DNA from: a virus
Taxonomy: Duplodnaviria; Heunggongvirae; Uroviricota; Caudoviricetes
Direction: 5' to 3' (one strand)
Length of the DNA stretch: 5,022 bases
Virus record (IMG/VR): IMGVR_UViG_2740892229_000003
The translations under genes were made by a program, and so were the position numbers. Shown here in pieces: positions 3,001 to 4,721 of this stretch. The notes under the pieces are model-generated. The model did not search any database. It saw only the letters and a list, made by a program, of their open reading frames with translations, and was not told the origin of the DNA. Position 1 is the stretch's first letter, and every line of letters begins with the position of its first letter.

Positions 3001-4721
3001 GACAGTCCGGGCGGTAAATGCGTGGGGGCAGCAGGGAGATCCGGCGTCGGTATCGTTCCGGATTGCCGCACCGGCAGCACCGTCGAGGATTGAGCTGACG
3101 CCGGGCTATTTTCAGATAACCGCCACGCCGCATCTTGCGGTTTATGNNNNNNNNNNCAGCCCGCTATCTTGGTACGGCGCTGTACTGGATAGCCGCCAGT
3201 ATCAATATCAAACCGGGCCATGATTATTACTTTTATATCCGCAGTGTGAACACCGTAGGCAAATCGGCATTTGTGGAGGCCGTCGGTCGGGCGAGCGATG
3301 ATGCATCCGGCTATCTGGATTTTTTCAAAGGCGAGATAGGGAAAACCCATCTGGCTNNNNNNNNNNTTTTTACGTTCGCAGTGTGAACACCGTTGGCAAA
3401 TCGGCATTCGTGGAGGCTGTTGGTCAGCCGAGTGATGATGCATCCGGCTATCTGGATTTTTTCAAAGGCGAGATAGGGAAAACCCATCTGGCTCAGGAGC
3501 TGTGGACGCAGATTGATAACGGTCAGCTTGCGCCTGACCTGGCTGAAATCAGGACGTCCATTACGGATGTCAGCAATGAAATCACGCAGACCGTCAATAA
3601 GAAACTGGAAGACCAGAGTGCGGCAATTCAGCAGATACAGAAGGTTCAGGTTGATACAAATAATAACCTGAACAGCATGTGGGCTGTGAAGCTGCAGCAG
3701 ATGCAGGACGGACGCCTTTATATCGCGGGTATTGGTGCCGGTATTGAGAACACCCCTGACGGCATGCAGAGTCAGGTGCTGCTGGCGGCGGACAGGATTG
3801 CGATGGTTAATCCTGCGAATGGCAACACAAAACCGATGTTTGTTGGTCAGGGCGATCAGATATTCATGAACGACGTGTTCCTGAAACGCCTGNNNNNNNN
3901 NNGCAGGGCGATCAGATATTCATGAACGAAGTGTTCCTGAAACGCCTGACGGCTCCCACCATTACCAGCGGCGGTAATCCTCCGGTATTTTCCCTGACAA
4001 CGGACGGGCGGCTGACGGCGAAAAATGCCGATATCAGCGGTAACGTGAATGCGAACTCCGGGACGCTCAACAATGTCACGATTAATGAAAACTGTCAGAT
4101 TAAGGGGAAACTGTCAGCCNNNNNNNNNNCCCCACCATTACCAGCGGTGGAAATCCACCGGCATTTTCCCTGACACCGGACGGGCGACTGACGGCGAAAA
4201 ATGCGGATATCAGTGGCAGTGTGAATGCGAACGCCGGGACGCTCAACAATGTCACGATAAATGAAAACTGTCGGGTTCTGGGAAAACTGTCTGCGAACCA
4301 GATTGAAGGCGATCTCGTTAAAACAGTGGGCAAAGCTTTCCCCCGGGACTCCCGTGCACCGGAGCGGTGGCCATCAGGGACCATTACCGTCAGGGTTTAT
4401 GACGATCAGCCGTTTGACCGGCAGATTGTTATTCCCGCGGTGGCGTTTCGTGGCGCTAAACATGAGCGGGAGAATAACGATATTTATTCGTCATGCCGCC
4501 TGATAGTGAAGAAAAACGGTGCTGAAATTTATAACCGTACCGCGCTGGATAATACGCTGGTTTATACAGGTGTTATTGATATGCCTGCTGGTCGCGGTCA
4601 CATGACGCTGGAGTTTTCGGTATCAGCGTGGCTGGTAAATGACTGGTATCCCACAGCCAGTATCAGTGATTTGCTGGTTGTGGTGATGAAGAAATCCACA
4701 GCAGGTATCACGATTAGCTGA
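2..4721 (+). CDS. J: Tail tip host-specificity protein J (central tail fibre), 5'-partial; composite of 15 tiles separated by N10 gaps, not translatable as one continuous frame as given
   Basis: Direct translation of the + strand tiles gives a lambda J-like protein recognised from memory, e.g. [170 protein letters not shown]. The frame runs open within every tile and ends at TGA 4719-4721. Non-redundant content is about 3.0 kb. The start lies upstream of the window. Confidence 0.9.
673..984 (+). repeat. Redundant tile: variant copy of 281-592 (J coding sequence), about 9 mismatches in 312 nt
   Basis: Base-by-base comparison of 281-592 with 673-984. Differences are mostly third-codon-position; protein changes include V to A (MVWCLW vs MAWCLW) and T to N (LTHPRYG vs LNHPRYG). 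Preceded by N10 at 663-672. Confidence 0.9.
995..1143 (+). repeat. Redundant tile: second variant copy of J block 514-662 (also overlaps 906-984)
   Basis: 995-1143 aligns to 514-662 with a few substitutions; encodes [24 protein letters not shown] where the first copy has [24 protein letters not shown]. Confidence 0.9.
1154..1302 (+). repeat. Redundant tile: third variant copy of J block 514-662, continuing into unique sequence 1303-1349
   Basis: 1154-1302 aligns to 514-662 and 995-1143; encodes [23 protein letters not shown] (G and Y where the other copies have S or G, and W). The tile then continues with [16 protein letters not shown]. Confidence 0.9.
1360..1406 (+). repeat. Overlap copy of 1303-1349 at the start of the next tile
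   Basis: 47-nt near-identical restart (ttctcagtgatttctgctcgg... vs tgctcagtgatttctgctcgg...) after N10 at 1350-1359. Confidence 0.85.
1676..1879 (+). repeat. Fully redundant bridging tile: first 100 nt copy 1566-1665, last 104 nt are copied by 1890-1993
   Basis: 1676-1775 aligns to 1566-1665 (encodes [33 protein letters not shown] vs DNGWE... in the first copy). 1776-1879 aligns to 1890-1993 ([35 protein letters not shown]). Flanked by N10 on both sides. Confidence 0.9.
2114..2178 (+). repeat. Redundant tile: variant copy of 2039-2103 (J), tile extends to 2199
   Basis: Encodes [21 protein letters not shown] vs [22 protein letters not shown] in the preceding tile. Confidence 0.85.
2210..2295 (+). 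repeat. Redundant tile: near-identical copy of 2114-2199 (4 mismatches in 86 nt)
   Basis: Encodes [29 protein letters not shown], a third version of the same block. N10 on both sides. Confidence 0.9.
2973..3130 (+). repeat. Redundant tile: variant copy of 2805-2962 (J, FN3-like region), about 10 mismatches in 157 nt
   Basis: Alignment of 2806-2962 with 2974-3130. Almost all differences are synonymous; one nonsynonymous change (SVLFRI vs SVSFRI). Confidence 0.9.
3367..3493 (+). repeat. Redundant tile: variant copy of 3230-3356 (J), about 11 mismatches in 127 nt
   Basis: Encodes [42 protein letters not shown] vs [43 protein letters not shown]. Confidence 0.9.
3903..3948 (+). repeat. Overlap copy of 3847-3892 at the start of the next tile
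   Basis: 46-nt restart (gcagggcgatcagatattcatgaacgaagtg... vs tcagggcgatcagatattcatgaacgacgtg...) after N10 at 3893-3902. Confidence 0.85.
4130..4295 (+). repeat. Redundant tile: divergent copy of 3954-4119 (distal J), roughly 20 mismatches in 166 nt (about 87% identity)
   Basis: Encodes [55 protein letters not shown] vs [55 protein letters not shown]; seven amino-acid differences. Confidence 0.9.

Follow-up and report, generated by a model that had tools for sequence, protein, structure and literature searches.

Mosaic J genes among lambdoid prophages, and polylysogeny in EHEC, are well documented. For gpJ of phage λ (PDB 8IYK, 8XCJ/8XCK) it has been described that the β-sheet prism passes receptor binding upward (PMC11101478). 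λ J also recombines experimentally with the resident ECB_00512 of strain REL606, with a change in phage fitness (bioRxiv 10.1101/2020.11.02.365361).

The DNA considered here is a stretch of 5,022 nucleotides from a virus of the Caudoviricetes (IMG/VR record IMGVR_UViG_2740892229_000003); the whole of it is referred to as the window. Two similar stretches of the window, 3954-4119 and 4130-4295 (referred to as the pair), had been taken, in a reading made from the sequence only, for two versions of the distal, receptor-specific tip of a λ-type J protein. The window is very probably a pseudo-scaffold, and the pair the corresponding parts of the J genes of two prophages, straddling a mosaic junction. 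(What this amounts to is ordinary mosaicism combined with an artefact of assembly.)

The J genes to which the tiles of the window belong have the same Pfam domain set as λ gpJ across their full length. The J proteins encoded at three loci of the E. coli chromosome NZ_CP027355.1 (copy A, or L001; copy B, or L002; and a third copy, L003) all score above the cut-offs for PF24801, PF13550, PF24421, PF24489, PF09327 and PF12421, and present the full J architecture (FNIII-A, Phage-tail_3 hub, two Ig/FNIII domains, tail-tip fibre, C-terminal Ig). The relationship to λ gpJ is colinear (2186 bits in a phmmer comparison with 8iyk_J): residues 1-836 are nearly identical, and residues 866-1158 align to λ 838-1131. 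Residues ~836-930, which make up the helical shaft and upper fibre, and the C-terminal ~158 residues, on the other hand, differ from those of λ. Gene order is also that of λ, with lom downstream of J. J occupies its expected place in the tail cluster at all three loci, the two that concern the pair (L001 and L002) having an intact gpJ in the standard cluster of tape measure, M, L, K, I, J, lom and tail fibre, and the succession of J and lom is visible in the window itself at 4130-4963. In 2013C-4991, the strain of this chromosome, the annotation gives the L gene of the copy-A prophage as frameshifted, and this prophage may thus be incapable of forming tails.

Tiles and spacers of the window

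The window is made up of 15 tiles of 86-893 nt, separated by 14 runs of exactly 10 N. All 15 tiles (T01 to T15) carry pieces of a λ-type J gene; they overlap one another, and their start coordinates on J rise monotonically. Fixed N spacers between overlapping and sorted pieces are the mark of a draft scaffold ordered on a reference, as is the origin of the pieces at different physical loci, with T14 placed at 2.647 Mb of the reference chromosome, T15 at 1.003 Mb, and T04, which matches the third prophage at 100%, at 2.097 Mb. Of the 14 internal tile starts, 11 coincide with a site that varies among J copies (the background of variable sites is 6.8%), and the base edges of the pair (3954/4130 and 4119/4295) are sites of the same kind. 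The pattern of tiles suggests an assembler that broke its contigs where near-identical repeats diverge, with subsequent ordering along a reference and insertion of spacers. The features on which the argument turns are collected in the Table.

Table. Features at the downstream end of the window (coordinates are window positions)
Feature	Position	Strand	Description
Tile T13, upstream neighbour of T14	3367..3892	+	Copy-A bases first, then the 356-nt block identical in A and B (3434-3789), copy-B bases last
Tile T14, internal J fragment (residues ~947-1018), copy A (L001) type	3903..4119	+	Contains 3954-4119
Approximate mosaic junction in T14	4084..4097	+	Equivalent to 4260-4273 in T15; stalk upstream, exchangeable receptor-binding module downstream
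N10 linker between tiles	4120..4129	.	One of 14 runs of exactly 10 N; scaffold join, no real sequence
Second copy of the pair, J residues 964-1018, copy B (L002) type	4130..4295	+	First 166 nt of T15
C-terminal receptor-binding domain (Ig-like) of J copy B	4326..4718	+	PF12421, residues 1029-1159 of the L002 J protein, E = 1e-38; stop codon at 4719-4721
Terminator-like hairpin and T run between J and lom	4741..4760	+	8-bp stem with 6 G-C pairs, then TTTTTATT
lom 5' fragment (Ail/Lom outer-membrane protein), truncated	4790..4963	+	Annotated as 'incomplete, missing C-terminus' at the identical position of NZ_CP027355.1
Terminal end of the IS66-family element ISEc23, inserted in lom	4964..5022	.	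Annotation at L002: ISEc23 transposase, tnpB, tnpA, then the rest of lom

Further tiles are assigned by matches at 100% to copy A (T02, T06, T08 and T11) and to copy B (T03, T10 and T12). T01, T05, T07, T09 and T13 have no match at 100% to the three copies that were fetched, out of up to 7 J-like places in the reference chromosome, and no complete genome matches T01 over its full length at more than 98.8%. The inexact tiles point to the involvement of further copies, of strain differences or of some chimeric contigs. In the case of T13, mismatches to L001 are confined to tile positions 424-508 and mismatches to L002 to positions 1-67, and its particular combination of A and B bases is present at 100% in other genomes, for example that of ATCC 8739. 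The tile set is incomplete, since the window lacks the copy-A sequence for J nt ~2781-2837 and for the receptor-binding domain.

A caution of more general use follows from this architecture: where overlapping near-duplicates lie on either side of a run of 10 N in a draft record, they are a sign of repeats that have been collapsed or branched rather than of local biology. Other cases of 'divergent duplicates' in the window share the scaffold cause.

Two prophage loci as the probable source of the pair

Tile T14 is identical over its 217 nt to positions 2647286-2647502 of NZ_CP027355.1, the chromosome of E. coli 2013C-4991 (an O80:H2 EHEC strain; PMC8537712), and lies there within an intact coding sequence for a gpJ of 1160 aa. 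Tile T15 (4130-5022) is identical over 893 nt to positions 1003411-1004303 of the same chromosome, 1.6 Mb away, where it covers the 3' end of a gpJ of 1159 aa, a truncated lom and the end of the ISEc23 element inserted in lom. The member of the pair that is contiguous with 4296-4718 is 4130-4295, which is part of the same uninterrupted tile and of one real gene. The two copies are best understood as paralogous J genes of two prophages in one chromosome, and not as a duplication, as noise or as a chimera; their assignment to one isolate rests on the co-occurrence of tiles in related complete genomes, a scan of viral_contigs and genome_contigs for the precise T14-N10-T15 junction having given no hit.

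How the window very probably arose can be outlined as follows. Draft contigs of an E. coli strain with several λ-like prophages, closest to the O80:H2 EHEC strain 2013C-4991, would have been ordered along J and joined by 10 N. The assembler would have failed on the near-identical J genes and broken its contigs at points of divergence, and alternative branches would now adjoin. The stretch 3954-4119 would come from the J gene of copy A, and 4130-4295 from that of copy B, running on into the receptor-binding domain, lom and ISEc23. The receptor-binding module of copy A is nearly identical to the module of a structurally described OmpC complex, and that of copy B is of the VT1-Sakai type.

Seen from the window alone, co-resident paralogues of this kind and a mixture look alike, so that the tiles might instead be alleles of one J locus from different phages or strains in a mixed sample (a metagenome or a mixed culture); moreover, T01, T05, T07 and T09 are without an exact counterpart among the three reference copies. 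This alternative is nevertheless improbable, because both tiles are found at 100% within the same complete chromosomes, at their widely separated loci, in at least 3 lineages (2013C-4991, the 25-07338 group and HCP5S3_I4). The T14 allele is rare, being present at 100% in 6 of 5426 complete E. coli genomes, but it is carried by every one of the 5 complete genomes that have the exact lom::ISEc23 junction of T15 (5/5). A mixed sample is also not needed, the E. coli genomes that carry this stretch having a median of 2 copies and a maximum of 12.

That one member of the pair should be sequencing noise or a chimeric product of assembly is very improbable. T13 does resemble an A/B hybrid across the 356-nt identical block, T01 is without an exact match, and some tiles may be chimeric. 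T14 and T15 themselves are each identical throughout to a different locus of an independently finished genome, however, and 12 of the 20 in-frame differences between the members of the pair are synonymous, with the reading frame preserved. A tandem duplication or programmed variation within one J gene (by a diversity-generating retroelement or a cassette or inversion switch) is the least credible explanation of all: two similar copies 176 nt apart beside a receptor-binding domain superficially resemble a template and variable repeat pair, but an N10 scaffold join lies between them, the tandem arrangement is present in none of the complete genomes examined, the substitutions are unbiased with regard to adenine, the window holds 0 inverted repeats, and the annotation of the reference loci shows neither a reverse transcriptase nor an invertase adjoining J.

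Divergence of the pair and the mosaic junction

With paralogous J genes of two prophages as the preferred interpretation, the divergence of the pair becomes a comparison between two complete genes. The pair aligns without gaps, with 21 mismatches in 166 nt (87.3% identity; a repeat search of the window returns it as family D4, 88% over 164 nt). In the J reading frame, which is set by the stop codon at 4719-4721 (frame and stop were checked), 7 of 55 codons differ in the encoded residue: V/A, T/P, N/S, S/A, Q/R, I/V and K/L. Both the degree of identity and the list of replacements agree with those given in the sequence-only reading, as does the observation that the overlaps upstream are less diverged than the pair, whose identity is the lowest among the overlapping tile pairs of the window (other pairs, 90-100%). 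(A 19-nt, 2.3-copy hit at 4074-4117, the sole report of Tandem Repeats Finder, is a trivial chance repeat in coding sequence.)

The higher divergence of the pair is explained by its position across the junction between a conserved trunk and an exchangeable module. The J genes of copies A and B are ~96% identical to residue 963 and divergent beyond it; in the full-length genes, mismatch density in codons 964-1018 is 3 times that in codons 1-963 (Fisher p = 2e-5). At finer scale, nucleotide identity of A and B is 92-100% to residue ~950, declines from 93% to 87% across residues 950-1025, and is 55-74% over the last ~140 residues. Copy A and the third copy are related in a different way, with C-terminal domains that are 99-100% identical and residues 800-950 that are strongly different. 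The identity profile of the three copies bears out the characterization of J as a hotspot of mosaic exchange.

The location of the pair within the protein is another matter. In the Pfam assignment, PF09327 (tail-tip fibre) spans residues 872-1000 and PF12421 (receptor binding) residues 1029-1159, so that the pair, residues 964-1018, comprises the lower end of the fibre and a linker, upstream of the receptor-binding domain and not within it. The pair is accordingly misplaced as the distal, receptor-specific tip of J. It corresponds to residues 936-990 of λ gpJ and, from its position at the end of PF09327 and upstream of PF12421, probably represents the lower part of the β-sheet prism (the 'central straight fibre') just above the receptor-binding domain.

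Natural recombinants define the junction more closely. The J genes of IAI1 and elppa6 have T14-type bases up to the position equivalent to 4083, except at 4000 (in the T/P codon), where the base is of T15 type, and T15-type bases from 4097 onward; their receptor-binding domains are likewise of T15 type, with 1-2 mismatches in 426 nt. The junction of stalk and module would on this evidence sit within the motif NENC/QIK (the slash marking the boundary), at about 4084-4097, the receptor module starting with QIK in T14 and with RVL in T15. In the 5' part of the pair, the bases of T14 are absent from copy B and from the third copy; from 4060 on, T14 agrees with the third copy at every base, and it is copy B that differs from both. 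No complete E. coli genome has T14 joined directly to the T15 receptor domain (3903-4119 plus 4296-4721) at ≥99% identity; the best match is at 98.3%, elppa6 (98.3%) and IAI1 (98.0%) being among the best.

The seven replacements sort on either side of this junction. Only Q/R, I/V and K/L travel with the receptor-binding module, and they do so in each of the five sequences that were compared. Of the four upstream replacements (V/A, T/P, N/S and S/A, at residues 974, 979, 993 and 998), V/A, N/S and S/A occur in other genomes together with one module or the other, which makes them unlikely to set the choice of receptor, and T/P is private to the T14 lineage.

Diversifying selection does not account for the replacements either. 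For codons 964-1018, dS = 0.35, dN = 0.069 and ω = 0.20, and upstream of this segment dS = 0.14, dN = 0.011 and ω = 0.08; the ratio of replacement to synonymous changes does not differ significantly between the two (p = 0.09), and positive selection on the pair is rejected. Elevation of both dS and dN at ω = 0.20 points to an older ancestry of this segment, probably brought in by recombination and held under purifying selection.

Whether recombination of this kind goes on inside the host is a separate question. The longest run of identity between copies A and B is 356 nt (J nt 2425-2780, the block contained in T13), and at a background divergence of 4.6% the expected number of runs of this length is ~6e-6. 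It is conceivable, though unlikely, that co-resident prophages actively exchange J segments in their host, and that the 356-nt block and the junction are traces of recent gene conversion in situ. Were this the case, such conversion could pair stalks with receptor modules in new ways, and phages released from O80:H2 EHEC could thereby acquire new host ranges.

Receptor modules and comparison with known J proteins

The last ~158 residues (the receptor-binding module) of copies A and B are only 65% identical (100/153). The PDB entries 9wca and 9wcb contain a protein designated 'A8 gpJ 713', and 9wcb also holds three chains of outer membrane porin C (OmpC). From the motif NVTI to the C-terminus, 157 of 158 residues of copy A are identical to A8 gpJ, as are 158 of 158 residues of the third copy; the module of copy B matches at 100 of 153 residues (65%) and falls well outside this near-identity. 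From the near-identity of the modules and the presence of OmpC in 9wcb, we infer that the J gene to which T14 belongs recognizes OmpC. The module of copy B is 45% identical to the LamB-binding module of λ, and at 45-46% identity to that domain neither A nor B would be expected to use LamB. In the literature searched on temperate phages of ECOR and EHEC strains there is no assignment of a receptor to the VT1-Sakai type of module found in T15. (Phage phi330, the only phage to come out of this search, uses OmpC, but its module is unrelated, at 35-40% identity to λ and 434.)

The two phages probably recognize different outer-membrane receptors. The suggestion that the pair represents host-range alleles stands in part, then: T14 and T15 do belong to genuine, co-occurring J alleles with different receptor ends, and it is plausible that the two genes are functionally distinct in host range. 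They are not alleles of one locus, however, and the determinants would lie downstream of the pair, the window containing only those of copy B. A single EHEC chromosome carries J genes whose receptor modules are of at least two different kinds, one of which is the putative OmpC-binding kind. Predictions of which hosts induced prophages can infect would profit from this, but it is not new.

Both J alleles are common, and are already represented in finished genomes and phage records. When aligned with J proteins of characterized phages, as had been proposed, the last 196 residues of copy B prove to be ~94% identical to those of the VT1-Sakai (Sp15) and PPompW prophages, and the last 197 residues of copy A to be 96-99% identical to those of Stx1a-converting phages, phage 2H10 and PhiR70_1. 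That the two copies adjoin in the window is an artefact, and there is nothing new in kind about the copies themselves.

The experimental exchange between λ J and ECB_00512 provides the closest parallel for the recombination itself. Here too, J homologues are co-resident and share a long identical block, and a junction lies inside the pair. Unlike the experimental case, recombination is deduced here from sequence patterns, in which exchange inside the host and exchange before lysogeny have the same appearance.

The identity of A8 gpJ to copy A and to the third copy extends from about λ residue 974 to the C-terminus, and includes the QIK of the pair; upstream of residue ~974 its sequence is that of λ, without the V974 and T979 of T14, so that A8 gpJ is a chimera. 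The point at which it switches from λ sequence coincides with the natural junction, and together they place the start of the exchangeable module of λ-type J proteins at about λ residue 974-982.

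Near-duplicates as alternative J copies

The cause given for the divergent J pair at 3954-4119 and 4130-4295 is also that of all other overlapping near-duplicates of the window (repeat families D1-D10). These families are alternative prophage J copies set side by side, and are not to be taken for duplications.

Coordinates of the features discussed (window positions unless a locus is named)
Feature	Position	Remark
Tile T01	1-662	
N runs	663-672 ... 4120-4129	14 in window; tile separators
Tile T08	2114-2199	86 nt, J nt 1468-1553
Tile T09	2210-2295	86 nt, J nt 1468-1553
Tile T13	3367-3892	block identical in copies A and B at 3434-3789
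Hairpin, G+C-rich, then T run	4741-4760	between J stop codon and lom
lom 5' part and ISEc23 end	4790-5022	ISEc23 end begins at 4964
Minor tail protein L gene, frameshifted	L001 1118-1815 = NZ_CP027355.1 2651688-2652385	annotation
nleB2 and nleC, type III effector genes	L003 11028-12196 (NZ_CP027355.1 ~2090108-2092141)	

Tiles that depart from the three J copies

Tiles T08 and T09 occupy exactly the same J coordinates. T08 is a 100% match to copy A (the J gene of the L001 prophage of NZ_CP027355.1), and T09 matches none of the three J copies compared, lying nearest to lambda (2 mismatches). The unmatched tile implies that the source contains at least a fourth J copy.

T13 is of mixed character: its first 67 nt carry bases specific to copy A, and bases beyond tile position 424 are specific to copy B (the J gene of the L002 prophage). 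The two parts are linked through a 356-nt block in which these copies are 100% identical (expected number of such runs, ~6e-6). T13 is either an assembly chimera across this shared block or an additional genuine J copy; its combination of bases is found at 100% in ATCC 8739 and other genomes.

No full-length match to T01 above 98.8% exists among 5426 complete E. coli genomes. At its position 281, which coincides exactly with the start of tile T02, T01 has a G that is found in none of the four references and would turn Cys into Gly within a QCYP motif. The collapse of copies into a consensus sequence may account for T01.

The J-lom junction and prophage context

The hairpin and T run that follow J are likely to constitute an intrinsic terminator. 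Downstream, lom is cut short after 174 nt by ISEc23, an IS66-family element. The identical lom/ISEc23 junction is limited to five complete genomes (2013C-4991, 25-07338, 25-07233, 25-06685 and LB858871) and is therefore well suited to mark the lineage to which the source strain belongs.

In the L001 prophage, which has the T14-type J, the gene for minor tail protein L carries a frameshift according to its annotation. This prophage may be unable to build functional tails, a possible defect that bears on any host-range test. In L003, the third prophage, nleB2 and nleC lie directly downstream of the tail fibre genes, consistent with an EHEC/EPEC background.
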